Below are positions 2,612 to 53,632 of a stretch of 64,000 nucleotides of DNA, piece after piece; within the stretch, counting starts at the first letter, position 1; the number at the start of each line of letters is the position of its first letter. The DNA is from a virus. The position numbers and the translations under genes were made by a program. The notes beneath the pieces were generated by a model. The model ran no database searches, was not told the origin of the DNA, and saw only the letters and a list, made by a program, of their open reading frames with translations. The stretch lies in the IMG/VR virus record IMGVR_UViG_3300050147_000032; one strand, 5' to 3'.

Positions 2612-3736
2612 TTATTCGGCATTCTTCTGGAGATCGTTGAAGCCAAATTCTTTGTATTTGCGCTTCATGAAATCCTTATAATCATTGCTTCGACCGATGT
2701 AAAGATTCATCACCAAACCAAAAAGCAAGTCATTGATATCTGCCTTCATCTTGATAGCAAAGTCCTTACGAACAAGATGTTTGTTATCTTCGTATGCTTT
2801 TTCTACAGTATAGACAACATGATTGTAAAGAGTCGATACCTTCTCTTGCATATCATCGATTGTTTTCATTGCAAGAGCATCAGTAGCAAACATCGAACGC
2901 AGATCGTCAACACCTTCATCCAAGATACATTCATAAAGTCGACGAGGATTATTAATCGAATCCTTTGCATGATGCAGACTGATATATTTGTCAGTCTTGA
3001 TCTTCACTCGTTGACCATTTTTCATCACAAAGATGAAACCTTCGATATCATCGAGCATCGAAGGGACTTGCTCGATGAATTCCTTATGAGACAAACCGGA
3101 TTGCATGTTAACTAGTGCGTTCATCCATTCAGAAAACCACAAATCGATGTATCCTTTAAGATTCCAGTCAACTTGAATAACGTCAATAGAATTAAGAACA
3201 ATCAGACGTGGTTCCAAGTAGCCTAATACGATGCGATTCCAAGGAGCAACCCATTCCAAATTGACCGTATTACCGTGAACTTCGGCTGATTTAAGTTTCT
3301 TTTTCAAATCAGCATTTTCTGGTTGATCGAGCCACTTCATTGCATCAATAGCTTGCTCAGAGAACAGAGAACCTTTGCTCTTCAATCGAAGTTCACCGTT
3401 ATGCATGTAAGTCGACATCAATGAGCCATCAGACTTAACTTCAATCCAATCAATCTCATTCAGATCAAGATTCATCGTCATTGGATTCTCATTGATGTTG
3501 AAGAACTTTGGCATAGGCAAAGATGCCAAACGCACACAGTCGCCGTCCTTCGTAACTTCAAACATCGTACCACGACACCACAAAGCACCCGGCAACATGA
3601 AATCGGTATAAGTTGCCAGCCGATAGTTGAAGATCCAGTAGATCTTATCATCCAGCAAGAATTCTTGCTTATAGAAAGCTTCGGTTTCTTTCGTCAGCTT
3701 AACGAGTTGGTCAAACAATTCAATCTGCTTATTCAT
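2612..3736 (-). CDS. rnlA: RNA ligase 1 (T4 Rnl1/gp63-like)
   Basis: IFNYRLATY, CRGTMFE, MPKFFNINEN, motif I EVKSDGSL, EGFIF, KIKTDKY. Start moved to the ATG at 3736 behind a GGAG RBS. Confidence 0.92.
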   Translation of the reverse strand: MNKQIELFDQLVKLTKETEAFYKQEFLLDDKIYWIFNYRLATYTDFMLPGALWCRGTMFEVTKDGDCVRLASLPMPKFFNINENPMTMNLDLNEIDWIEVKSDGSLMSTYMHNGELRLKSKGSLFSEQAIDAMKWLDQPENADLKKKLKSAEVHGNTVNLEWVAPWNRIVLGYLEPRLIVLNSIDVIQVDWNLKGYIDLWFSEWMNALVNMQSGLSHKEFIEQVPSMLDDIEGFIFVMKNGQRVKIKTDKYISLHHAKDSINNPRRLYECILDEGVDDLRSMFATDALAMKTIDDMQEKVSTLYNHVVYTVEKAYEDNKHLVRKDFAIKMKADINDLLFGLVMNLYIGRSNDYKDFMKRKYKEFGFNDLQKNAE

Positions 3737-15563: not shown

Positions 15564-15974
15564 ATGACAGAACTTGTTATCGTTCGTGGAATTCCTGGCT
15601 CTGGTAAGAGCACATATGCCAAGACTCTGGGCTATCTGAATTACGAAGCAGATCAATATTTTATTGATCCAGAAGGAAATTATCTTTTTGATGCAACTAA
15701 GCTTTATCAAGCTCATCGTTGGTGTCAGGAAAAGACTCGATCTGCTTTGAGCGATGGTCTTTCTGTTGTTGTGAGCAATACTTTCACAACTCGCAAAGAA
15801 ATGAAAGACTATCTTGAAATGGCGTATGAACTGCATATTCCGGTTCGCGTTGTCAAGGTTCTTGGGAATTTTCAGAATGTGCACGGTGTCCCAGAAGAAG
15901 CATTGGAACGTATGCGCAATCGTTGGCAAGACGTCGAAGGCGAATCAGTAGTCGACAATCGGATTATGATTTGA
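15564..15974 (+). CDS. P-loop kinase (polynucleotide-kinase-like, AAA_33 type)
   Basis: VIVRGIPGSGKST, EADQYF, VVVSNTF, NVHGVP. Confidence 0.85.
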   Translation: MTELVIVRGIPGSGKSTYAKTLGYLNYEADQYFIDPEGNYLFDATKLYQAHRWCQEKTRSALSDGLSVVVSNTFTTRKEMKDYLEMAYELHIPVRVVKVLGNFQNVHGVPEEALERMRNRWQDVEGESVVDNRIMI

Positions 15975-15975
15975 T

Positions 15976-16548
15976 ATGGCAAATATTTTCTTAATTTCAG
16001 ATCAACATTTTGGTCACAAGAATATCTTAAATTTCAAGCGTCGAGATGGGATCACGCCACTACGTTTGTTTGATTCGTCCGAAGAAATGGATGAACACAT
16101 GGTAGATTGTCATAATAAGGTCGTGAAGCCAAATGACAAAATCTACATGCTTGGTGATCTTGCGATGAACAAGAAATTTCTTCCTATTCTGGATCGTTTG
16201 AATGGTGAAAAGATTTTGATCAAAGGAAATCATGATCAAGATTCTTTGGCTGTATATGCAAAGTATTTCAAAGATGTTCGAGCATCACATCAACTTGCTG
16301 GTCATATCTTGACTCACATCCCAATTCATTCAAATTCTCTGAGTCGTTGGAAGAAGAATCTACATGGCCATCTACATGCAGATGTCGTTGGTGATCTTGA
16401 TACAGATGGTATTTGGCAACCAGATCATCGGTATGTCTGTCTCTCTGTCGAGCATACCAATTATTTTCCGATTGCACTCGAAGACATTGATACGTTTGCT
16501 AATGAACAGCACGATAAGGCTATACTTTCAACAAAGACTGTTGTATAA
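15976..16548 (+). CDS. Calcineurin-like metallophosphoesterase
   Basis: ISDQHFGH, LGDL, KGNHD, THIP, LHGHLH. Confidence 0.88.
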   Translation: MANIFLISDQHFGHKNILNFKRRDGITPLRLFDSSEEMDEHMVDCHNKVVKPNDKIYMLGDLAMNKKFLPILDRLNGEKILIKGNHDQDSLAVYAKYFKDVRASHQLAGHILTHIPIHSNSLSRWKKNLHGHLHADVVGDLDTDGIWQPDHRYVCLSVEHTNYFPIALEDIDTFANEQHDKAILSTKTVV

Positions 16549-32085: not shown

Positions 32086-34683
32086 ATGACAGTAAAAAAC
32101 AACTATTCGATCTATACATCTGTATCCAGAGAAGGAAACAACATCCTTTTCATGGGATACAACAATGAAGGAGCACCAGTAAAGGAAAAGATTCGATTTG
32201 CACCAGAACTTTTCATCGAACGTGCAGGAGGTGAATTTCATACACTGAAAAAGACATCATGCGTTCGTAAAGAATTTGATACGATGAATGATTGTTATGA
32301 TTTTGTAAAAACTCATAAAGATGTCTATAACTTGTACGGATGTTCAGACTTTGTTCGTCAATTCACAGGACGACATTTTCGTGGAGAACTGAAGCCACGC
32401 AATGATTTGATTCAAGTCTGGTTCTTTGACATCGAGACAAAGATTGGCGGAGGAGCTACTGGAGAAATTGACGAAGAAGGAAATGACATTCTTTCTAAAG
32501 GAGGTTTCCCGGATCCAAAATCTGCAGCAGAATCAATTTCTTTGATTACGATGTATAATCGTTCAAAGAAACAGATCACCACATGGGGACTATATGCAAT
32601 TGATGCCCCTGATGTAAATTCTAAACAAACAGAAGAACAGATCCAAGAAGACATCGATTGGATTCGCAGCAAGAATGTCGATTATCGCATGTTCTCTGAT
32701 GAAACATCCATGCTCAAAGATTTTTTGATGTTCGTGAAGACAAACCGTTTAGATATTCTTTCTGGATGGAATTCGGAATTCTTTGACGTCCCATATCTCT
32801 ACAATAGATTGGTGAATCTTCTTGGAGAAGCACTAGCTGCACATCTTTCACCCTGGAAGATTGTCAATGAACATAAAAAGTTCGTAAATGATAAAGAGAA
32901 GTTGACATATGAGATTGTTGGTGTTGGTCATGTTGATTTGCTTGATCTGTATAAGAAGTTCAATCCAGGATCTAAAGAATCTTTCGCACTTGGATTCATT
33001 GCAGATGTTGAACTTGGAGTTACAAAGGTAGAACTGCCAGGGGAAGATTTCAAGGATTCTTATGAGAATTATTGGTCTACATTTGTAAAGTACAACATTG
33101 TAGACGTGCTTCTTTTGGATGATCTTGACAAGAAGAAACAGATTGTTGATCTTTGTATGTCTATTGCATACATGGCAAAGTGTAATTACGAAGATGTCGT
33201 CTCAGCCATGCGTACATGGGAATCTCTGATTTATAATCATTTCTTGGATTTAGATATTGTTGAAGACTGGACTAAGCCTCATTCTAAGAAGTTGCCGTTG
33301 GAAGGAGCATATGTTCATGTTCCTAAGCCAGGAGCATATCGATGGGTTGTTTCTGTAGATGCAACATCAATGTATCCTTCTATCATGATGCAGAATAATC
33401 TTTCCCCAGAAACAATCCAATACAAGATCGACTATACCGTTCAAGATGTATTGGATGGTAAGATTCCAGAATTGAAATCGAATGAAATTCTTTCATGCAA
33501 TGGTCTTGTTACGCGATCTGACATCAGCGGATTTATTCCTATCTTGACGAAGCAAGTTTTCGATGGACGTAAAGAAGCGAAAAACAAGATGTTGGATCTA
33601 AAGAAAATTGTTAAGTCTATTGAAAATGCTCTAGAAAAATCTAGCACAGAATCTGATATTTCTGCATTGAACATGAAGCAAAATGTGCTGAAGGTGTTAG
33701 GTAACAGTCTGTATGGCGTTTGCAGTTTGCAGCACTTCCGTTATTACAATCATTACATTGCAGAAGCAATTACGTTATCTGGACAAGCGTATCTGAAGCT
33801 GACGATGAAGATCATAAACGATGTTTTGAATAAGCTATGTGGAACTGTTGGTAAGGAATATGCTTTCTACGGTGATACAGATTCGATCTTTTTTACTGCT
33901 GATGCGATGGTCAAGAAGATGTGGTCGAACAAGACAGATGATGAAATTGTCGCTGCTCTGGAAAAGTTTGTTATGAAAGTTCTGCAACCAGAAATCAATG
34001 ATAAGCTGTCTGTTTTGACTAAGAAAATGGGAGCTCCGGAAAATTACATGTTCTTCAAGTTGGAAGGTATTTCCAAGAATGCAATCTGGTTAGCTAAGAA
34101 AAGATACATTGCTGCACTTCGTTATAATGAAGGTGTCTGGTATAATCCACCAGAAATGAAGATCATGGGAATGGAAATTGTCCGATCATCTACACCGAAG
34201 TTCATCAAAGAGCAACTTCGTAAAGCTGTTCAGATTTGCATTGATGGCGAAGAATCTGATCTTCAGAAGTTCGTATCTGTTTGTAAGTCTGATTTCATTA
34301 AGAAAGATGTAGAAGATATCAGTTTTCCTCGTGGATGTAATGGACTGGGAGTTTATTCTGATGAAAAGACAATCTATAAATCTGGAACACCAATCCACGT
34401 TCGAGCTGCTCTGATGCACAATCATATTATTCACGAAAAGAATCTATCAACAAAGATTCAAGCAATTGGCGACGGAGATAAGATTAAATTTGTTCATTTG
34501 AAGATGCCGAATCCAATTCACGAGAACATCATTGGATATACATCTAAGCTTCCTGTTGAATTTGGTCTTCACAAATACGTAGACAAGAACATGATGTTTG
34601 AAAAGGGATTTGTCGGACCTCTTGAAGGTGTACTGAAGGCGATTGGATGGACCTCAGAAGAGCAGAATACGTTGGACTTTTGA
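32086..34683 (+). CDS. gp43: Family B DNA polymerase (T4 gp43)
   Basis: Exonuclease FDIET, GWNSEFFD, YNIVD; polymerase DATSMYPS, KVLGNSLYG, YGDTDS, KKRY. Confidence 0.98.
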   Translation: MTVKNNYSIYTSVSREGNNILFMGYNNEGAPVKEKIRFAPELFIERAGGEFHTLKKTSCVRKEFDTMNDCYDFVKTHKDVYNLYGCSDFVRQFTGRHFRGELKPRNDLIQVWFFDIETKIGGGATGEIDEEGNDILSKGGFPDPKSAAESISLITMYNRSKKQITTWGLYAIDAPDVNSKQTEEQIQEDIDWIRSKNVDYRMFSDETSMLKDFLMFVKTNRLDILSGWNSEFFDVPYLYNRLVNLLGEALAAHLSPWKIVNEHKKFVNDKEKLTYEIVGVGHVDLLDLYKKFNPGSKESFALGFIADVELGVTKVELPGEDFKDSYENYWSTFVKYNIVDVLLLDDLDKKKQIVDLCMSIAYMAKCNYEDVVSAMRTWESLIYNHFLDLDIVEDWTKPHSKKLPLEGAYVHVPKPGAYRWVVSVDATSMYPSIMMQNNLSPETIQYKIDYTVQDVLDGKIPELKSNEILSCNGLVTRSDISGFIPILTKQVFDGRKEAKNKMLDLKKIVKSIENALEKSSTESDISALNMKQNVLKVLGNSLYGVCSLQHFRYYNHYIAEAITLSGQAYLKLTMKIINDVLNKLCGTVGKEYAFYGDTDSIFFTADAMVKKMWSNKTDDEIVAALEKFVMKVLQPEINDKLSVLTKKMGAPENYMFFKLEGISKNAIWLAKKRYIAALRYNEGVWYNPPEMKIMGMEIVRSSTPKFIKEQLRKAVQICIDGEESDLQKFVSVCKSDFIKKDVEDISFPRGCNGLGVYSDEKTIYKSGTPIHVRAALMHNHIIHEKNLSTKIQAIGDGDKIKFVHLKMPNPIHENIIGYTSKLPVEFGLHKYVDKNMMFEKGFVGPLEGVLKAIGWTSEEQNTLDF

Positions 34684-44133: not shown

Positions 44134-45408
44134 ATGATCAAAATCGAATCAACAAATCCAAAGTTTTCTTGGATTCTCAGGAAAAATCCTGAGACACAAC
44201 GAACAAAGAATGAGCCATTCTCAAAAGCATTGCGTAAAGGAATGTCGTATGGATGGTTCACAACGGATCAACAATTCAATCTTTTGTTCATCGATTCGAA
44301 GACAGAGACATCCTTCAATACGATTGGCGACTTCGAATATCTCGATCGGACACGCTACTGTTCGCCATATCTTCCGATTGCATTGATTGCTAATCTTTTG
44401 GCATCTGCACAAAAAGAAGATGTTCCGGAAGATACAGCTGACTTTCAAACGACTATCGAGTTCATTTCAGAATTTTCTGATCCAAAACTTGCACATCGAG
44501 TCATCAAAACAGTAACAGATGCAAAGATTGAGCTTGTGCAGATGCAACACCATCTATACAATGTGAAAATCAGTGCAACCGGAGTTCGAAAAGCTCTGAA
44601 TTGGACTATTGCTTTCTTGATCACACAAGCTGTCTTGGATCCGATGATTTACATTCCCATGGATGATGAATCTGTGAAGAAGTACATCAATGCACTGAAT
44701 ATCGTTGACGCGCCGTATTACATGCGTTACATCACAGCAAACAAATGCATTAAATCTCCTGTTGTTTTTGACACGGTGAAGAATTCTCTGGAAAACGAAA
44801 AGTTCCAGATGAACTTTGGAGATTCACAGAATCATCGTTGGCTTGCTATTGAGAAGCATTTGAATGGTGGCGCTGCTCTTTTTGATATTGGTTGCGGTGA
44901 GTTGTATTATACTCGTCGTCTATACAATCGATATGAGAAGTTCTTTGCTTTTGATGCAGATGAAAAGATCCAAGATCGAAATAAACATCTAGTAAATCTA
45001 CGTTGTCAAGATAAGATTGATCTACTGGGGAAATTTGATTCGACGTATGCAGATGGAAGTATCACAGATAAAGATGATGTTCTATTGACAGAAGTGTTGG
45101 AACACATGCCCAAGGAAACTGCTGTGGAACTACTGGATCAGGTTCTACGTGGTGATTTCCGTCGAGTTGTTGTCACTGTACCTAATGTTGATTTTAATCG
45201 ATTTTACGGCCTCTACGGCGATGATAAACGACATCCAGATCATCATTACGAACCGACTCAAACAGAATTCGAAACTTGGATGAAAAATGCAGCATCAAAA
45301 GTTGGATGTGGTGTTGAATTCTTCAATGTTGGAGATGGAGTAATTGTAAATGGACAATCGATCTATGCTTCACTTGGAGCAACTTTTAAAAAGGAAAAGA
45401 ATGAGTAA
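44134..45408 (+). CDS. hen1: Hen1 RNA 2'-O-methyltransferase (bacterial type: N-terminal ligase-activating domain plus C-terminal MTase)
   Basis: FDIGCGE, LTEVLEH, TVPNVDFN, RHPDHHYE.T..EF..W, F..VG are Hen1 MTase motifs. Confidence 0.85.
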   Translation: MIKIESTNPKFSWILRKNPETQRTKNEPFSKALRKGMSYGWFTTDQQFNLLFIDSKTETSFNTIGDFEYLDRTRYCSPYLPIALIANLLASAQKEDVPEDTADFQTTIEFISEFSDPKLAHRVIKTVTDAKIELVQMQHHLYNVKISATGVRKALNWTIAFLITQAVLDPMIYIPMDDESVKKYINALNIVDAPYYMRYITANKCIKSPVVFDTVKNSLENEKFQMNFGDSQNHRWLAIEKHLNGGAALFDIGCGELYYTRRLYNRYEKFFAFDADEKIQDRNKHLVNLRCQDKIDLLGKFDSTYADGSITDKDDVLLTEVLEHMPKETAVELLDQVLRGDFRRVVVTVPNVDFNRFYGLYGDDKRHPDHHYEPTQTEFETWMKNAASKVGCGVEFFNVGDGVIVNGQSIYASLGATFKKEKNE

Positions 45409-46411
45409 TTTCACTTTGGCTAACAATGTGATGCTCGAGATCCAAGATATCTCAGAGTTGCGTTTTGTTAATTTCATCAATGATCTAGCAAAGAAGAATC
45501 TTTCGACGCTAATGCGAAAGTTTAACTTCATGAAGAATACTGATTTTTCATTCCATCGTTTTGCAACACTTCATGGATTCGTTGTGATTGAAGGCGAGGA
45601 TCGTTATTCTTCTGATACGAACTATGTGATGATCAATGAGAATGAGAACGTTGCTATCAAAGTGGAAACAAAGTCTGCATTTCTTCCATTCAAGTTCTAT
45701 GGAGAAAGCTCGAAGGTGAATCATTACATTTCTTTCTTCAAGGAACATTTCACAGAAACAGGACCGATGATTCGCTGGGTATATGATGAACATGGAAGTT
45801 ATACAAACGTTCCTCTTGTTTCTCGTGGTCTTGTGAAATCTGCATATCCATTCATCGAAGGAAATGTATCAGATTACATTGATGACTATATCAATTCGGA
45901 TGCCTCGATCATTGTTTTTATTGGGCCACCTGGAACAGGAAAGACATCTTTGATCAAAGAAATCATTTCTAGATCAACTCGTCCTGCTCATGTTTCATAT
46001 GACATGAAGGTCATGAATGGCGAATCTCTTTTTACAGAATTTATGACATCTGATTCGATGTTCTTGGTTATGGAAGATGCAGACGCTTTCCTTGCTTCGC
46101 GCAAAGAAGGTAACACTATGATGCATCGATTTTTGAATGTTGGTGACGGTTTGATTTCAACGAAAGGTAAGAAGATCATCTTTTCGACGAATCTTCCGAA
46201 CATCGAAGAAATTGATCCTGCTTTGCTTCGTCCTGGGCGTTGTTTTGATGTAATGAGTTCCAGAGAACTGACTCGTTCAGAAGCAGAAGCAGTACGTGAA
46301 GAATTGAAGATTCCTTTTGAACTCGAAGATAAAGAATCGTTCTCTCTTGCAGAAATCACGAACAAGATGCGCACACATAAACAAAAAACAAGAACAGTAG
46401 GATTTTATTGA
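45401..46411 (+). CDS. AAA+ ATPase
   Basis: GPPGTGKT, LVMEDAD, FLNVGDG, FSTN, IDPALLRPGRCFD. Confidence 0.9.
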   Translation: MSNFTLANNVMLEIQDISELRFVNFINDLAKKNLSTLMRKFNFMKNTDFSFHRFATLHGFVVIEGEDRYSSDTNYVMINENENVAIKVETKSAFLPFKFYGESSKVNHYISFFKEHFTETGPMIRWVYDEHGSYTNVPLVSRGLVKSAYPFIEGNVSDYIDDYINSDASIIVFIGPPGTGKTSLIKEIISRSTRPAHVSYDMKVMNGESLFTEFMTSDSMFLVMEDADAFLASRKEGNTMMHRFLNVGDGLISTKGKKIIFSTNLPNIEEIDPALLRPGRCFDVMSSRELTRSEAEAVREELKIPFELEDKESFSLAEITNKMRTHKQKTRTVGFY

Positions 46412-46755
46412 TGGAAAAGATTTTACAACTAGATGTTCCAACTAAAAATGGAACCACATATACAACTGAATGTATCTCAGCAATGTTGAAAACCATTAAA
46501 CCTGAAATATTCGGTCAAATTGGAATGGCTACATTCGTAGATTTAGAGAAAGTGTCGCATGTTTGCACAAATTTCAAAATTGAAGACGGATGGCTACAAT
46601 GTGATATCAAAGTTCTAGATACGCCATGCGGTAAGATTTTGAAAGATATGAATGGTGGCAATTTTGCTGCTTCTGGAATAGGAAATATTGATACAGATAA
46701 AATTGTCTCAAACTACGAGTTGACAGGCGTGCATTATGTCATGAATAGATCATGA
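46408..46755 (+). CDS. Short prohead-protease-like (gp21-like) protein
   Basis: DVPTKNG..Y, VDLEKVSH, IKVLDTPCGKIL resemble T4 gp21 segments. Confidence 0.5.
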   Translation: MMEKILQLDVPTKNGTTYTTECISAMLKTIKPEIFGQIGMATFVDLEKVSHVCTNFKIEDGWLQCDIKVLDTPCGKILKDMNGGNFAASGIGNIDTDKIVSNYELTGVHYVMNRS

Positions 46756-47174
46756 CTCATTGGGATAAACGATATCTTGATCTAGCAAAGCATATCTCGA
46801 CATGGAGCAAAGATCCAAGCACGAAAGTCGGAGCTGTGATAACAAAGAACAACAAAGAGATTGCTCTGGGGTTCAATGGAATTCCATCTGGTCTTGATGA
46901 TGGGAAATATCTAGGATCCAGAGATATCAAAATCGCTTGCGTTCTTCACGCAGAGATCAATGCAATCTTCAGTACATCTCAAGATCTGGAAGGAGCAACG
47001 ATGTATACTTCATCTGCGCCTTGTTCAAATTGTGCTGCTGCTATTGTTCAGAAAAAGTTTGCTCGTGTTGTCATGCCACCTGTTGATTTTGAACTTGCAA
47101 AGAGATGGAACTATCATCTGTCAAAGCAGATGTTTGATGAAGTTGGAATTGAAGTAGTTGAGATCGAGGATTGA
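46752..47174 (+). CDS. dCMP deaminase
   Basis: WSKDPSTKVGAV, LGFNG, HAEINAI, PCSNCAAAIVQ. Confidence 0.93.
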   Translation: MTHWDKRYLDLAKHISTWSKDPSTKVGAVITKNNKEIALGFNGIPSGLDDGKYLGSRDIKIACVLHAEINAIFSTSQDLEGATMYTSSAPCSNCAAAIVQKKFARVVMPPVDFELAKRWNYHLSKQMFDEVGIEVVEIED

Positions 47175-48890
47175 ATGTCAAATTATCGTAAAATTGTTCG
47201 TCAGCAAATTTCACACCAGACATCATCTGGAATAAATGTAGCTTTCTATCCAAAGACAAATATTATCGAGATTGATGGCTTCTACGATTCATGTGTTCAT
47301 ATCGAAGGTAACGTCTTTCGGCTAAGAGAATTCTTTGATTTGATGAACATAACTATGGAAGACTGTGAAGAAGCATTCGGTAAGAAATCTTCAAAAGTTC
47401 TATGAAATCTGCTTGACTCGTTGGTTGGATCATCATACAATAGAGACATGTTGAAACAAACGAAAGAACATTATGATTCACGATCTGACTACTAAAACTA
47501 TCCAGATGACTCAACAAGAAGCAATTGATATGATTACTCTTCTTTCTTTGGCTCTGACGGATTCTAATTCATTGGATCGTGGAGTCTTTGCTAAAAACGT
47601 TGTTGCAGAATCCACTGACAAGCAATTTGCATCGAAGATTATTTTTGTTGTTAATAAGGAATAATCATGGAAAATCCATTCTTTATCAAAAGAAATTCAG
47701 ATGATATGATCACTGTCTTCCTTGGAAATCCAGATGAAATTGGTGCAGAAGCAGAACATATCATGACTATTAACAATTTCTGGTTGAAGATGTTCCAAGA
47801 AAAGTTACAAGATCATATCAAGGAGACTAATCATGTGTGATTGTTACAAAATCGGCGGACCTTGGATTGCCGAAGATCCAGAATGTCCAATTCATGGTCA
47901 GCGAGCTCAAAAAAATGAAAAAGAACAAGCAGAACGAGATACACAGTATCAAGAGAAGATCGAATCATTGGAAGCGAGAGTTCTTGATCTGGAAGAGAAG
48001 TTGACTTTCATTGTTCTTTTGCAATCTATGATATCTGTATCAGATAATCCTTGATTTCTTTTGATCAATCTGGTAAAATTTTAAATCCTAACATTTTGGA
48101 GATTATTATGGACGATAACGTTGTTCACTTGTTGATGAAAAAATATGAGAGAAAAGAAGAAGAAGCTCGTGCACAGGCTAATGCGTATGCAGTTTCTTAC
48201 ACAAAGACACTTGATGCAAAACATCGTGTTTGTTATGAAATTTATGAAAGCAAAGCCGAGTTGTGGAAGGAAGCCGGTCGTCTTCTCAGAACTGCTCGTT
48301 TTAGTTCAACTGTTGATTAATTGGAGATTATCATGAGTTCTGTAAAAATTGGTGATTTCATTCGTGTGAGTTCTGATGTTATTGATTCATATTCACATCT
48401 GGCAGGAGAAGAATTTGAAGTTGTGAAGGTTGTTCCTTCTGCTATTATTGTTGTTAAATATTCTATTCGGTATGTTCTTTTGGATGGTGAATATGAATTG
48501 ATCGATAAAAATATTGTAGAAGAAAAGATCGAACAGAAGGTTAGCCAAATCAGTCAATCTTCTTTGGATATTTCAATCAACGCACTTAAATTGTCATTAC
48601 GTCTTCTCGAAGAAGAATTCCGGAAAAACAAGCGATTGATTCGTGATATCAAGAAATCTGAATGGTGGGATGCTGTTTGTCAAGAAGCAAAGAACGCAAT
48701 CAACAAAGATCATGCTCGTTTCTTTTCTAAGAATCGTGAAGATCGCAAGAAGATTGCGATTGCTCTGAAAGAAATCAAGAATGCTAAGACTTTCAAGTGA
48801 AATCTGCTTGACTCTCTGAAGAATCAATCATATAATTGAGACATGTTGTGATAGACAACAAAACTTTTAACCTGATTGGAGATTATTATG

Positions 48891-49856
48891 GCCCACGAAT
48901 TGACACAACGAAAGAACGGTTTCATCGAATTTGCTGCTCTTGGCGAACGTAAGAATGTCTGGCACAAGCTTGGTCAATACCTTGAAGAAGGTGCTTCCAT
49001 TGAAACTTGGAAGGAACAAGCTGGTATGGAATGGATGGTGAATTCTTCTCCTTTGATGTACAGCGGTAAGGCAGACATCATTGTTGATGATTCGAAGCAA
49101 ATCTTGCATCGTTCAGATACCGAAGAACTCCTGGGCATTGTTTCGAAGGATTACAAGATTGTTCATCCTGGCGAAGTTCTGGAATTCTTCCGTGACCTGA
49201 CGGAACAGAATCAAATGAAGCTGTCTGCAGCTGGCACGTTGTTCGGTGGCAAGCGTTTCTGGGCTACTGCAGAAATGGGCAAGTCTGCTCATATTGTTGA
49301 TGGTGATCGAATCGATGGTTTCCTTCTGTTGACTAGCTCGGCAGATGGTTCTGCTTCGACTACAGCAAAGTTCGTTTCTACTCGTGTGGTTTGCAATAAT
49401 ACGCTGCAGATTGCAATGAACGAAAAGGCCCGTAACGCTATCAAGATCACACACGCAAGCACATTTGATCCCAAGGAAGTCAAGATTGATTTGGGTCTTC
49501 TGGATGTTGCATGGGATAGCTTTATCGGCAACCTGAAGACGCTGGCTTCGAAGAAGGTTTCTGATGATCTGGCTCAACAATTCTTTGCCAAGCTGATCAC
49601 ACCTGATAACTCTGCTATTGATATGGAACTGTTGAAGACTCAACGTCATGTTGATGCTCTGATGCATTTTTACCGTTCAGGTGCGGGTGCTGAGTTCAGC
49701 TATGGTACGCAGTATGGTCTGCTCAACGCAGCTACTGAACTGTGGACTCATGGTACGGGCAAGACCGATGCATCCAAGCAGTTCGAAAGTTCCGAATTCA
49801 AGGATGGTTCGAAGATGAAGACTTTGGCTATGAACCGTCTGCTGGCTTTGGTATAA
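48891..49856 (+). CDS. DUF932-family protein
   Basis: WHKLG, RSDT.ELLGIVSKDYKIVHP, AGTLFGGKRFW, SADGS, RVVCNNTL, KITH. Confidence 0.85.
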   Translation, partial: AHELTQRKNGFIEFAALGERKNVWHKLGQYLEEGASIETWKEQAGMEWMVNSSPLMYSGKADIIVDDSKQILHRSDTEELLGIVSKDYKIVHPGEVLEFFRDLTEQNQMKLSAAGTLFGGKRFWATAEMGKSAHIVDGDRIDGFLLLTSSADGSASTTAKFVSTRVVCNNTLQIAMNEKARNAIKITHASTFDPKEVKIDLGLLDVAWDSFIGNLKTLASKKVSDDLAQQFFAKLITPDNSAIDMELLKTQRHVDALMHFYRSGAGAEFSYGTQYGLLNAATELWTHGTGKTDASKQFESSEFKDGSKMKTLAMNRLLALV

Positions 49857-51265
49857 GAATAGAGGGGACTTCTTTCAAAGTTCCCCAATTTCGTATTGAT
49901 TCTTTTGGAAAACTTCTGTATAATCAATTTATTGGTTAACGAAGAGGAGATTGAGATGACATACGTTAAAGCTGAAGAAGGCAATACATTCACAAAGAAT
50001 GATCGACAATTTGTCTTCTTGATGATTGCCAATGATACACTGAAAATCTTTTCTGTTGGTTCTTACAATCGTTACAGCGACGTAGAATATCGTCTGTTCC
50101 AGATGGTCGACATCGATGCTCTCTTCAACACAAAATGAAAGAATTGAAAATGATCAAAATCACAAACTATCCAGGCAAATTTACTCGAGAATTTTTGCTG
50201 AAATCACAAAAAGATCTTGGTGAGATTTTCCTTTATGAAGGAACATCTGGCACTATGGGATTTTATCATATATACAGCATCCATCATTCCAAAATCGGTG
50301 CATTCGACAAATACGTGAAAGAAAATATGAAGATCCCACATCCACATGCTGATCTGATGATCGCTTTTGCCAAAGATTCTTCTTTGGAATTTGAAAATTC
50401 TATCGATGGCCGTCGTTGGACACTTTGTAAGAATCCTTCTTGGCTTCCAGGTACGAAATATCGTATCAAGAAGAATTATGTGAAACATTATCAGGTTGTT
50501 TTGTTCAATACATCAACTCAACATGCATTCATTTCAGATGATCGATTTATTTCTTTGGAAGTTGCTCGAAAATTTTACGAAGATCATATTAAGGTTCTAT
50601 ATCTTATTGAAGAATCCGGTTTCGATGTTGAGGTGTAATCATGAAACTCTATTGCATTGTATGTGAAATTGAAGTACTCAATCAAACAGCAGGATGTCCT
50701 GAATGTGGTCGTCTTTCGACAACATCAGTTAAGCCAATAGATGTGACGCGTCAAGAATCTAATTTGTATGCAATTCGAGCGTCGAAGGATTATGTTCCAG
50801 AATTTCCACCAAGTCGACTGATTGATGATTCTGTTGAAGGATGTGTTAGCGCATATAACGCTATAAGGAGATGGTGATATGTCACTGGATGATTCGATCA
50901 AAGATGCATTCAAATACGCTTTTGAAGAGGGATACTTCTCAAAATCAACATACAACGATGTAGATGTTGGTTCGTGTGAAGAGTCTTGGGAATCATCTGA
51001 AGCAAAAGAAAAATCCGATAGAATGAAAGTCTTCGGATGGGCGATAGTTGATAAGGATGGATCGGAATACAAAATTCGTCCAAAAATCCATAACTTCTTT
51101 GGTGCTGTAATGGAAAGAGAGTCTTATACTTCAGAAGACATCAAGAAAGCTAATCAAGAATTTCCTGGATGTGCTCCTCATAAAATTATCACACTCTACA
51201 CAGATAGTTGACTTTACATCTTCTGTAGATCATTGTATAATCAATAAATTGAACATGGATACAAA

Positions 51266-53632
51266 ATGAAACAACATACAATCGTTCTACTCGTTGGTCC
51301 TTCTTGTTGCGGAAAGACAACGTTTGCCAAGAAGATCCAAGCAGCAATCGTCGAAGAAAATCTGAAATGTGTGATCATTTCATCAGATGACATTCGACGT
51401 GATCTGCTTTGCGACAATGAGATTCATAAGCTCGATGCATCGATGTCTTCTGTATCAGCCGAAGCCCATCATATCCTGAAGACAAAGGTTGATTTTCACT
51501 CGAAGTTTCCTATCAATACGGATGTCATCATCGTTGATACGACTGGATTGTCTGCTCATTTCCGTGAAGAAATGATCGAGATTGCAAAGAAGAATCATTA
51601 CAACATTGATATGTTCGTGTTTGATTATCCTCGTTCTGATCTCGAAGGATTTGTTGCTTTGAATCACGGCGACATGTATGTTACTGGTCATCAAATGAAA
51701 CGCCTCCGCGAAGAGGTTATGCCCAATCTAAATCGCAAGGCATATGGAATGGTTCAAATTTTCAAGAAGCCAGAAGATGCTGTTGCTTGGATTCCTACTA
51801 TCGAGAATCGTGATGTTGTCATTCAAGCAAATGAAGATGATAAGATCGTCGTCATCGGAGATGTGCATGAATGTGTCGATGAGCTAGTTGCTCTGTTTGA
51901 TAAAATTCCAACTAACGTCAATCATATCGCTCTTCTAGGGGATATCGTTGATAAAGCTGAAGACACAGAACGTCTGATCAACTTGATTTTTGATATGACA
52001 AAGAGTCAGAAGAATTACGATTTCTTCTTGATTCGAGGAAATCATGAACGATATGTTTACAAGCGACTGAAGGGGATTCTTGCTCCCAACGAAAAGCTTG
52101 ACAATGAATTCTTCCAATCATTCAAAGTGCTTTCTGTAGATGAAAATCTTCGAGAAAAGTTCTTCTTCCTGTATGAAAATGTGATGGTGGATCATCTGAA
52201 GTTTATTCGTGGACGAGAAAAAGCTATTATTCTGACTCATGCTCCTTGCTCCAATGTTCATCTGGGAAAGCATGACAGCAAGTCATCTGGTAAACAGATC
52301 AACTTCTACTTCACTTCTCGTGATCAAGAAAAGATGCTCGATGAACTGAAATTCATCGAAGATGAAGCAGATAGCAATCATCCTTGGCATCTGTTTGGTC
52401 ATGTTGCTCATGATGGTCGTCAACCTAAGATGATCAAGAACAAGATCTTCATGGATACTGGCTGTGTTCATGGCGGGAAACTGTCTGCCGCAGTATTCAA
52501 TGGTCGTCATGTTGATTTCATCACAGTTGATTCCAAACGTGAAGTTCATGGTTTGATTTCTCTGGAAAAGAAAGAAACGAAACTGGAGAAGATTGTTCGT
52601 TCTGATATCAATCTTTCCGAAGAAGATCAACGATCGGTAGATAAAATTGCAAAGAGCGGAGCGAAGTTCATTTCCGGGACAATGGCTCCTGCTCCTTCAA
52701 AAGATATGGATATCGAGTCTCTGGAAGCTGCTGTTTCATATTTCAAGGAACGAGTGACAGATGTTGTAATTCAACCGAAATATATGGGATCTCGTTGTCA
52801 ATTTTATCTCTACAAGGATCGAGCAAAGAACTTTGCAACTTCCAGGAATGGATTCAAAATCAAGATTGATAAACTTCAAGAATACATGGATGTGTATCAA
52901 ACATGGATCGAGAAGTCTATCAAATTTGAAGATGAGTTGATTTTGGATGGAGAACTTCTTCCTTGGTCAGCACTCGGTAAAGGTCTGATTGATGGTGCTT
53001 TTGGTCAATATCAAAGCGCTATCAGTTGGACTCTAGATAACCTGAGTCTCGATGAAACTTTTGCTGGATTTGATATTTGCAAGAAACTGAACATCACAGA
53101 GCAACAAAACAATCTTGTTCAGTTTCAGGAACAGCTTGCTCTATATGGCCAAGATCGTCATCTGGAATATAAAGCATTCGACATCCTTTCTATTGATGGG
53201 AAGATTGTTGCTGGTAAGCAAAATGATACGAGCTTCTTTGTGTTGAATTCAGATAAGACTTTGAAGATTAATCTGAACGAACCAGATGCACTTTTCCGTA
53301 TTCAGAATTTCTTTGATGTGCTTGTTTTTGATAAGGGATTTGAAGGTATTGTGATCAAGCCTGTTTCTTATGATTCGAGCAAGAATTGTGTTCCTTACAT
53401 GAAAGTCCGCAACAAAGAATATCTGCGTCTTGTGTATGGTTTCAACTATGCATCGCGCTTGTCCGAACTATGCAAGCAAAAGAATACTCGTGGAAAGATG
53501 AACTTGTCGATTGATGAATTTGAACTTGGTCAGGCTATTCTTGCTGAGAAGGATGATGTAAAGCGTAAGCATCTGATTTCTGCGATGTTCGGTAAGATCG
53601 CTAAAGAACGCACTTTGGATCCACGTCTGTGA
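51266..53632 (+). CDS. pnkp: Polynucleotide kinase-phosphatase Pnkp (kinase, phosphoesterase and ligase domains)
   Basis: GPSCCGKT, SSDDIR; GDVHE, GDIVD, RGNHE, FGH, DTGCVHGGKLSA; ISGTMAP, KYMGSR, DGELLPWS, EGIVIKP, KVRNKEYLRLVYG; ends DPRL. Confidence 0.9.
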   Translation: MKQHTIVLLVGPSCCGKTTFAKKIQAAIVEENLKCVIISSDDIRRDLLCDNEIHKLDASMSSVSAEAHHILKTKVDFHSKFPINTDVIIVDTTGLSAHFREEMIEIAKKNHYNIDMFVFDYPRSDLEGFVALNHGDMYVTGHQMKRLREEVMPNLNRKAYGMVQIFKKPEDAVAWIPTIENRDVVIQANEDDKIVVIGDVHECVDELVALFDKIPTNVNHIALLGDIVDKAEDTERLINLIFDMTKSQKNYDFFLIRGNHERYVYKRLKGILAPNEKLDNEFFQSFKVLSVDENLREKFFFLYENVMVDHLKFIRGREKAIILTHAPCSNVHLGKHDSKSSGKQINFYFTSRDQEKMLDELKFIEDEADSNHPWHLFGHVAHDGRQPKMIKNKIFMDTGCVHGGKLSAAVFNGRHVDFITVDSKREVHGLISLEKKETKLEKIVRSDINLSEEDQRSVDKIAKSGAKFISGTMAPAPSKDMDIESLEAAVSYFKERVTDVVIQPKYMGSRCQFYLYKDRAKNFATSRNGFKIKIDKLQEYMDVYQTWIEKSIKFEDELILDGELLPWSALGKGLIDGAFGQYQSAISWTLDNLSLDETFAGFDICKKLNITEQQNNLVQFQEQLALYGQDRHLEYKAFDILSIDGKIVAGKQNDTSFFVLNSDKTLKINLNEPDALFRIQNFFDVLVFDKGFEGIVIKPVSYDSSKNCVPYMKVRNKEYLRLVYGFNYASRLSELCKQKNTRGKMNLSIDEFELGQAILAEKDDVKRKHLISAMFGKIAKERTLDPRL

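Follow-up and report, generated by a model that had tools for sequence, protein, structure and literature searches.

A putative Hen1-Pnkp RNA repair system with split genes in an uncultivated T4-like phage

The IMG/VR virus record IMGVR_UViG_3300050147_000032 contains the genes hen1, for a Hen1-type RNA methyltransferase, and pnkp, for a three-domain protein that could heal and seal RNA ends. We analyzed them within a stretch of 64,000 nucleotides of this record (below, the window) and propose, with a probability of about 0.65, that their products are the subunits of a functional Hen1-Pnkp machine with which an uncultivated T4-like phage repairs RNA, tRNA counter-defense being the most likely role. 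Intact genes, four conserved catalytic centers and a predicted interface between the N-terminal domain of Hen1 and the ligase domain of Pnkp argue that a system to heal, methylate and seal is the right reading of this pair. The novelty is modest: a non-classical clade bridging two characterized systems, a separation of the two genes that is conserved within a T4-like lineage, and a repertoire of three RNA ligases.

Domains, catalytic residues and predicted interaction

The two genes and their domains are located in the window as follows.

44134-45408, plus strand: hen1, 424 amino acids (aa), matching Pfam Hen1_N and the methyltransferase part of TIGR04074
44134-44811, plus strand: N-terminal ligase-activating domain of Hen1, approximately aa 1-226 (Pfam Hen1_N)
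44836-45363, plus strand: C-terminal RNA 3'-end 2'-O-methyltransferase domain of Hen1, approximately aa 235-410
51266-53632, plus strand: pnkp, 788 aa, ending in LDPRL, with Pfam kinase, metallophosphoesterase and ligase matches
51266-51805, plus strand: 5'-OH polynucleotide kinase domain of Pnkp, aa 1-180 (Pfam AAA_33)
51821-52600, plus strand: 2',3'-phosphatase domain of Pnkp, dinuclear metallophosphoesterase type, aa 186-445 (Pfam Metallophos)
52628-53632, plus strand: ATP-dependent RNA ligase (adenylyltransferase) domain of Pnkp with the DPRL end, aa 455-788, and the stop codon (Pfam PNKP_ligase)

The hen1 start codon overlaps the stop codon of the upstream open reading frame (ORF) in the sequence ATGA. 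The protein combines a ligase-activating domain at the N-terminus with a 2'-O-methyltransferase at the C-terminus, the latter including its metal site. Pfam Hen1_N covers residues 6-226 (1.5e-43, 149 bits at a cut-off of 27 bits), and the methyltransferase half matches positions 271-451 of TIGR04074 (1.8e-19). Among solved structures, the window Hen1 matches Hen1 of PDB entry 4xrp_C with 2e-31, and over its full length with 1.7e-60 when a profile is used. In the alignment of the methyltransferase to 3JWG and 4XRP, the S-adenosylmethionine motif DxGCG (D251/G253/G255) and the metal site E320/E323/H324/H367/H370 (ExxEH, RHxDH) were identified; all of these residues are invariant in alignments of 13 and 22 Hen1 sequences.

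The kinase, 2',3'-phosphatase and ligase modules of Pnkp are located on one chain. They are recognized by Pfam AAA_33 at residues 7-126 (2.8e-11), Metallophos at 193-335 (2.3e-13) and PNKP_ligase at 468-769 (2.1e-24), and the protein matches positions 8-429 of TIGR04075. A Pnkp profile detects the Clostridium thermocellum structures of the kinase (4jst, 4e-8), phosphatase (4j6o, 8e-22) and ligase (3e-33), as well as the Capnocytophaga gingivalis ligase CgiRnl (4xru_B, 5e-72). Conservation was assessed in alignments of 13 Pnkp and 13 Hen1 proteins, comprising the window, one metagenome relative and 11 viral records, with near-duplicate records excluded; the aligned sequences are 25-57% identical.

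In this set, the residues expected for catalysis at each of the three active sites of Pnkp are invariant or near-invariant. In the kinase, G11, P12, G16, K17, S40 and R44 are invariant and D41 is near-invariant. The phosphatase motifs GDVHE, GDIVDK, GNHE, THAP and GH line up with 4j6o, and residues D199, H201, D226, D229, N259, H260 and H379 are invariant, H325 being near-invariant. The position that we take to be equivalent to Arg237 of the C. thermocellum enzyme is occupied by a lysine (Lys230) throughout the clade. The ligase retains invariant motif I (K505-Y-M-G-S-R), motif III (D561/E563), motif IV (E693/G694/K698), motif V (K713/R715) and the C-terminal DPRL. Since the catalytic residues of both proteins are kept, or nearly so, across such divergent relatives, both genes are under purifying selection as enzymes.

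The maximum-likelihood trees of Hen1 (37 rows) and of the ligase domain (47 rows) are congruent, and thus the pair still co-evolves despite being unlinked here. Hen1-N is predicted to dock on the ligase domain: the structural model of Pnkp residues 440-788 with Hen1 residues 1-235 has an ipSAE (interaction prediction score from aligned errors) of 0.81, compared to 0.02 for the best control. Of the solved complexes, 58 of 80 reached the mark set for this score, compared to 2 of 110 mismatched pairs. The model runs have at least 72% of contacts in common, the partner pLDDT (predicted local distance difference test) is at least 76, and the modeled interface includes the invariant Hen1 residues W41, D54, D71 and Y75. 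Complexes of Hen1-N with a ligase have already been solved, and therefore the model demonstrates a kept likeness to them rather than binding by this particular copy. Gene integrity, domain order, conservation of catalytic residues, co-evolution and the predicted interface were all computed from the sequences.

Clade membership and likeness to known systems

The original prediction described the pair as a bacterial-type Pnkp-Hen1 system, which holds for the domain order. The classical systems of C. thermocellum and Anabaena variabilis (4DRF, 3TY5, 4J6O, 4JST, 3JWG) share the fusion of kinase, metallophosphoesterase and ligase and the DPRL end; their Hen1, like that of the window, begins with a ligase-activating domain and ends with a 2'-O-methyltransferase of the Mn type. 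The classical order, with hen1 upstream of pnkp, is matched by relatives of the window, the window genes themselves being unlinked. The description does not extend to the sequence, as identity to the classical proteins is only 22-27%. Searches with profile hidden Markov models, proposed as a check, likewise gave a mixed outcome: the four Pfam families given above all match, and the NCBIfam equivalog cut-offs are reached by neither protein (164.7 vs 750 bits for Pnkp with TIGR04075; 69.6 vs 340 bits for Hen1 with TIGR04074). On the same models, bona fide classical genes taken from genomes of Bacillota obtain 364-692 bits.

The nearest solved relative of both the Hen1 and the ligase of the window, by the profile scores given above, is the Pnkp1-Rnl-Hen1 system of C. 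gingivalis (4XRP/4XRU). In that system, three proteins assemble into a heterohexamer, namely Pnkp1 (a T4-like kinase-HAD phosphatase), Rnl (a stand-alone ligase) and Hen1, the hen1 gene being distant from those of Pnkp1 and Rnl (Wang et al. 2015, PMC4411300). The location of hen1 away from the ligase gene is thus common to Capnocytophaga and the window. The architectures differ: in Capnocytophaga the ligase stands alone and ends are healed by the kinase-HAD phosphatase, whereas in the window the ligase is joined in one chain to a kinase and a metallophosphoesterase, and no HAD phosphatase of the Pnkp1 kind was found in the available 97 kb of the record. The phage Hen1 profile aligns with C. 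gingivalis Hen1 over its full length, and with Clostridium and Anabaena Hen1 only over the methyltransferase half (~1e-24). The Hen1-Rnl-Pnkp1 type was known from 10 species in 2015 and is far more widespread than that in Bacteroidota; in Rhizosphaericola mali (L090) and Dysgonomonas sp. (L092) its genes make up single operons, and genes of RlaP nucleotidyltransferases are close by.

The ligase and Hen1 trees, in which Bacteroidota operons (L090, L092, L093) together with PDB profile scores stand in for Capnocytophaga, agree in placing the classical sequences beyond the longest branch (SH-aLRT, Shimodaira-Hasegawa-like approximate likelihood ratio test, 100). The non-classical side includes the fused phage forms, the stand-alone phage ligases (XacN1, RAS14, RYC, L094), the Bacteroidota Rnl, and the fused form from approximately 27 Bacillales genomes (Bacillus, Paenibacillus, Listeria, Gottfriedia and others) and one Bacteroidia metagenome-assembled genome (MAG). 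The window groups with metagenome contig L039 (SH-aLRT 100 in both trees) inside a phage-only clade of 11 rows, supported by 97 in the ligase tree and 100 in the Hen1 tree. Fused architectures are intermixed with split ones, and therefore fusion or fission has occurred several times. The ligase domain of the window clade is compact and lacks an insert of about 40 aa found in most other groups, including Capnocytophaga Rnl. Judging from profile scores and the shared major clade, the window system combines the classical-type domain architecture with a Capnocytophaga-type ligase and Hen1 lineage.

The Hen1 family of this clade is large. Among 1.84 billion representative clusters (at 50% identity), the Hen1 profile detects 519 with E <= 1e-30, of which more than 150 match over the full length and better than 1e-90. 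The phage genes are therewith part of a large clade that is common to phages, Bacillales and Bacteroidota, is missed by the curated models of the classical system, and bridges the fused Pnkp architecture and the Capnocytophaga-type ligase with Hen1. By itself, the window is incremental: one more phage with the kit, with a split gene order, and uncultivated. The Bacillales fused hen1-pnkp loci (L042-L069) also score far under the TIGR04074 and TIGR04075 cut-offs. In one of them, from Listeria monocytogenes (L047), a 729-aa RING-domain protein (NF041916, under its cut-off) is encoded immediately upstream of hen1-pnkp.

Phage-encoded healing and sealing of RNA as a counter-defense is known from T4, where PseT (Pnkp) and RnlA repair tRNA-Lys cut by PrrC; the phage studied here is likewise T4-like and has a true Rnl1. 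T4 differs from the window in several respects: it lacks Hen1, leaves the repaired RNA without a methyl mark, uses a HAD-type phosphatase, and encodes the ligase as a protein of its own. Phage genes annotated as PNKP/Hen1 have been known since the Xanthomonas jumbo phage XacN1, ORF197-199 (Yoshikawa et al. 2018, PMC5852040), and a full-text literature search gave no other paper that names Hen1 with a jumbo phage. Similarly to the window, XacN1, the Stenotrophomonas phages RAS14 and CM1, and the Vibrio phages RYC and sm033 combine Hen1 and a Pnkp-type ligase in large, tRNA-rich genomes. The ligase of these cultured phages is a stand-alone protein encoded beside hen1, in contrast to the fused ligase of the window; a full three-domain Pnkp like that of the window was found in none of 50,697 phage records. 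The kinase is a separate gene in XacN1 and is apparently fused to Hen1 in RYC, where a 717-aa Hen1 ORF (L003:5167-7320) is annotated as 'polynucleotide kinase' and probably contains the kinase. Other Hen1 forms of about 700 aa are P0317 (716 aa) and P0361 (702 aa); such forms would be another way of module shuffling.

Split gene order and genome setting

In the window, the stop of hen1 and the start of pnkp, both on the same strand, are separated by 5.86 kb with approximately 14 ORFs, close to the distance of about 6 kb noted earlier, and the two genes do not form one operon. The following features are located between them.

45401-51211, plus strand: spacer of approximately 14 ORFs, containing an AAA ATPase, dCMP deaminase, DUF932 and small ORFs; linked to the system by position only
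45401-46411: AAA ATPase (phrog_14322), whose start ATG overlaps the hen1 stop (ATGAGTAA)
46752-47174: dCMP deaminase
48876-49856: DUF932 gene
51213-51241, plus strand: sigma-70-like promoter-like site (TTTACA, 17 nucleotides, TATAAT), 25 nucleotides upstream of the pnkp start

The split is specific to a lineage. An alignment query, used because a single Hen1 sequence as query gave none, detected Hen1 relatives in 14 other viral records of IMG/VR; in all 14, a full three-domain pnkp directly follows hen1, often with overlapping stop and start codons. The genes are also adjacent in approximately 27 bacterial loci. A search with gp43 at 1e-10 gave no match in the 14 records with adjacent genes, which therefore are not T4-like. 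Neither a T4-type HAD Pnkp nor Rnl1 was found in them over the cut-off, and hence these records are uninformative on whether Rnl1 and the cassette travel together.

Three metagenome contigs (L039, L098 and L099) share the backbone of the window, with the order polB ... endolysin - NT5C - dNMP kinase - hen1 ... DUF932 ... pnkp - 500-aa protein. Their identity to the window is, respectively, 57, 48 and 42% for Hen1 and 55, 53 and 40% for Pnkp, and the distances between hen1 and pnkp are 6.8, 3.3 and 5.4 kb. As the split order is kept in all three, the split is old and stable. All four members of the split lineage have the DUF932 gene (62-68% identity) in the gap from hen1 to pnkp, the rest of the gap content being variable; this gene may be an accessory part or a mere synteny anchor. 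The AAA ATPase directly follows hen1 in L039 and L098 as well; no copy was detected in L099, nor in the 14 IMG/VR loci up to 10 kb from hen1. For the small ORFs of the spacer, Pfam and PADLOC scans yielded only P-loop noise. An RNase or toxin nested between hen1 and pnkp, as in some bacterial operons, was considered and rejected on these scans.

The genes hen1 and pnkp are likely transcribed separately, as judged from their surroundings. The promoter-like site before pnkp has 11 of 12 consensus matches and ranks in the top two of the 15 kb scanned. Overall, the scan gave no enrichment over shuffled sequences (59 sites vs 45.7 +/- 7.9), and the site is not conserved in L039; it is therefore only a suggestion. 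In L039, genes on the opposite strand separate hen1 and pnkp. The dCMP deaminase gene also adjoins the cassette in L014, L015, XacN1 and RAS14. In T4, the end-healing gene pseT is located about 1.3 kb from cd (dCMP deaminase), near rnlA; by analogy, this proximity to dCMP deaminase in both T4 and the window phage suggests that the cassette sits in the PseT niche.

The viral record that contains the window is 96,962 bp long, with a CheckV completeness of approximately 44%. Its DNA polymerase of the gp43 type (32086-34683) is about 38% identical to cyanomyovirus polymerases and has matches in 2669 phage records. A clamp loader of the gp44 type is also encoded, and the two genes together therefore mark the backbone as that of a distant T4-like phage. 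Megablast of the 9.5-kb hen1-pnkp region against the 50,697 phage records gave no matches. The phage has at least 17 tRNA genes and the following further genes of RNA processing.

233-1342: CCA-adding enzyme
2612-3736, minus strand: rnlA-type RNA ligase 1 (Rnl1, T4 gp63 family), 374 aa (TIGR02308, Pfam RNA_lig_T4_1 and T4_Rnl1_C)
15564-15974: stand-alone AAA_33 (polynucleotide-kinase-like) P-loop protein, 136 aa, inside the tRNA region
L095:1670-2653 (G000:C1:84933-85916), about 1.7 kb past the window end: Rnl2-family RNA ligase (PF09414, 1.1e-14)
L095:4236-5090, same record past the window end: Thg1 tRNA-His guanylyltransferase (Pfam Thg1, 4.6e-29)

The coordinates originally reported for Hen1, Pnkp and Rnl1 are all correct, and the family E-values exclude chance for these three assignments. 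Rnl1 belongs to the T4 RnlA family: it scores 289.5 bits (4e-86) with TIGR02308 at a cut-off of 242.25, and has motifs I, IV and V (KSDG, EGFIF and KIKTDKY). Homologs are present in 1715 phage records, mostly T4-like (gp63/rnlA), and by this distribution Rnl1 is ancestral and ordinary for a T4-like backbone. The phage has three types of RNA ligase (the Pnkp ligase, Rnl1 and the Rnl2-type protein), and T4 has two; the two independent ligation routes of the original prediction are therefore both an undercount and nothing unusual. The HAD-type PseT/HAD_PNKP family (PF25109) had no match in the available 97 kb, which does not establish the absence of pseT since the record is only about 44% complete. 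The ORF at 15976-16548, next after the stand-alone AAA_33 kinase, had no Pfam match and no PADLOC match. Thg1 is also encoded by XacN1. A second case of Rnl1 alongside a Hen1-dependent ligase, here bacterial, was observed in a Saprospiraceae MAG (L093:2648-6185), where a T4 Rnl1-type ligase (PF09511, 344 aa) is encoded directly upstream of hen1-rnl in one operon.

Proposed mechanism and alternative readings

The proposed mechanism follows the biochemistry of homologous systems (Wang et al. 2015, PMC4411300). The kinase domain of Pnkp would phosphorylate the 5' end of a cut RNA, and the metallophosphoesterase domain would strip off the 2',3' phosphate. Hen1, held by its N-terminal domain on the ligase domain of Pnkp, would methylate the 2'-OH of the new 3' end, and the ligase domain, presumably active only with Hen1-N, would seal the break. 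The 2'-O-methyl group at the junction would then block a second transesterifying cut at the same site. The likeliest substrates would be tRNAs of the host or the phage hit by host anticodon nucleases or other RNA-cutting defenses, and the role would be a counter-defense of the T4 Pnkp and Rnl1 kind against PrrC, with 'immunization' in addition. That the proteins have these activities, form the complex in vivo, act on such substrates and serve counter-defense is our inference from the computed properties described above. A strong pressure from RNA-cleaving host defenses behind the system is plausible. The natural substrates of Pnkp-Hen1 systems are unknown according to Wang et al. (2015, PMC4411300), and the phage setting supplies both an obvious opponent, the RNA-cutting defenses of the host, and an obvious readout, plating efficiency.

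Several observations weigh against this proposal. Both proteins score far under the equivalog cut-offs of the classical system. The insert of about 40 aa that is missing from the window-clade ligase, and that is present in Capnocytophaga-type Rnl and the Bacillales forms, lies beside the predicted Hen1 contact region. Given the promoter-like site before pnkp and the opposite-strand genes in L039, the genes do not share an operon, and hence stoichiometric co-expression is not guaranteed. In favor of the proposal, albeit circumstantially, five cassette-bearing phage records that are at least 90% complete have 9-22 tRNAs, and the arrays are usually within about 10 kb of the cassette; this co-occurrence stands without a control set, and large phages often carry tRNAs anyway. 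In the record behind L016, a tRNA gene (G012:C1:20345-20427) begins 11 nucleotides past the pnkp stop.

The same tRNA neighborhood could point to RNA maturation instead, with the system, Rnl1 and the Rnl2-type ligase joining processing ends of unusual RNAs of the phage itself and leaving a 2'-O-methyl mark. A role in maturing split and permuted tRNAs, as originally suggested, gained no support from the analysis. The phage does encode several enzymes of tRNA processing (the CCA-adding enzyme, Thg1, the three types of RNA ligase, and the stand-alone AAA_33 kinase in the tRNA region), and in most relatives tRNA arrays are no further than about 10 kb from the cassette, with a tRNA starting 11 nucleotides after pnkp in G012. 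We nevertheless regard this reading as unlikely: the cassette is present in many unrelated phages and bacteria, a methyl group in the anticodon loop after each maturation event would be an unusual requirement, and no splicing endonuclease was identified. The gap of 3.3-6.8 kb in all four members of the lineage, with its signs of separate transcription, raises the question of whether the two proteins are coupled at all. Hen1 alone could be a 3'-end 2'-O-methyltransferase that shields small RNAs of the phage from 3' exonucleases and tailing, and Pnkp could heal ends for Rnl1 and Rnl2 in place of T4 PseT. The 97-kb record has Rnl1 and no detected T4-type HAD Pnkp, although at approximately 44% completeness the absence of pseT is not established, and dCMP deaminase is near the genes as cd is near pseT in T4. 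Such a division of labor strikes us as quite improbable, given that Hen1 retains a complete ligase-activating domain with invariant interface residues, that the ligase motifs and the DPRL tail of Pnkp are invariant as well, and that the two trees are congruent.

Decay of the genes as passengers, or action on DNA ends instead of RNA, has in our estimate a very small chance of being correct. T4 Pnkp is active on DNA ends too, and hen1 and pnkp are located among the nucleotide-metabolism genes NT5C, dNMP kinase and dCMP deaminase; however, the Hen1 methyltransferase family is specific for the 2'-OH of RNA. Decay is at odds with full-length ORFs in which every catalytic residue is conserved, and with the more than 150 clusters with full-length matches, which indicate strong purifying selection. 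Returning to the repair machine proposed here, we also considered a variant that we hold to be highly unlikely, in which an acquired Hen1-Pnkp displaced the T4-type PseT and works in a network of three ligases. The methyl-marking route would be reserved for selected targets, for instance the tRNAs of the phage itself, and DUF932 would be a new accessory component, as would the AAA ATPase in three of the four relatives. Contig L039 additionally carries, near a GroES-like gene, a gene of the Acb2/Tad1-hairpin family (L039:2891-3226; Pfam match), a family of anti-CBASS/Thoeris sponges.

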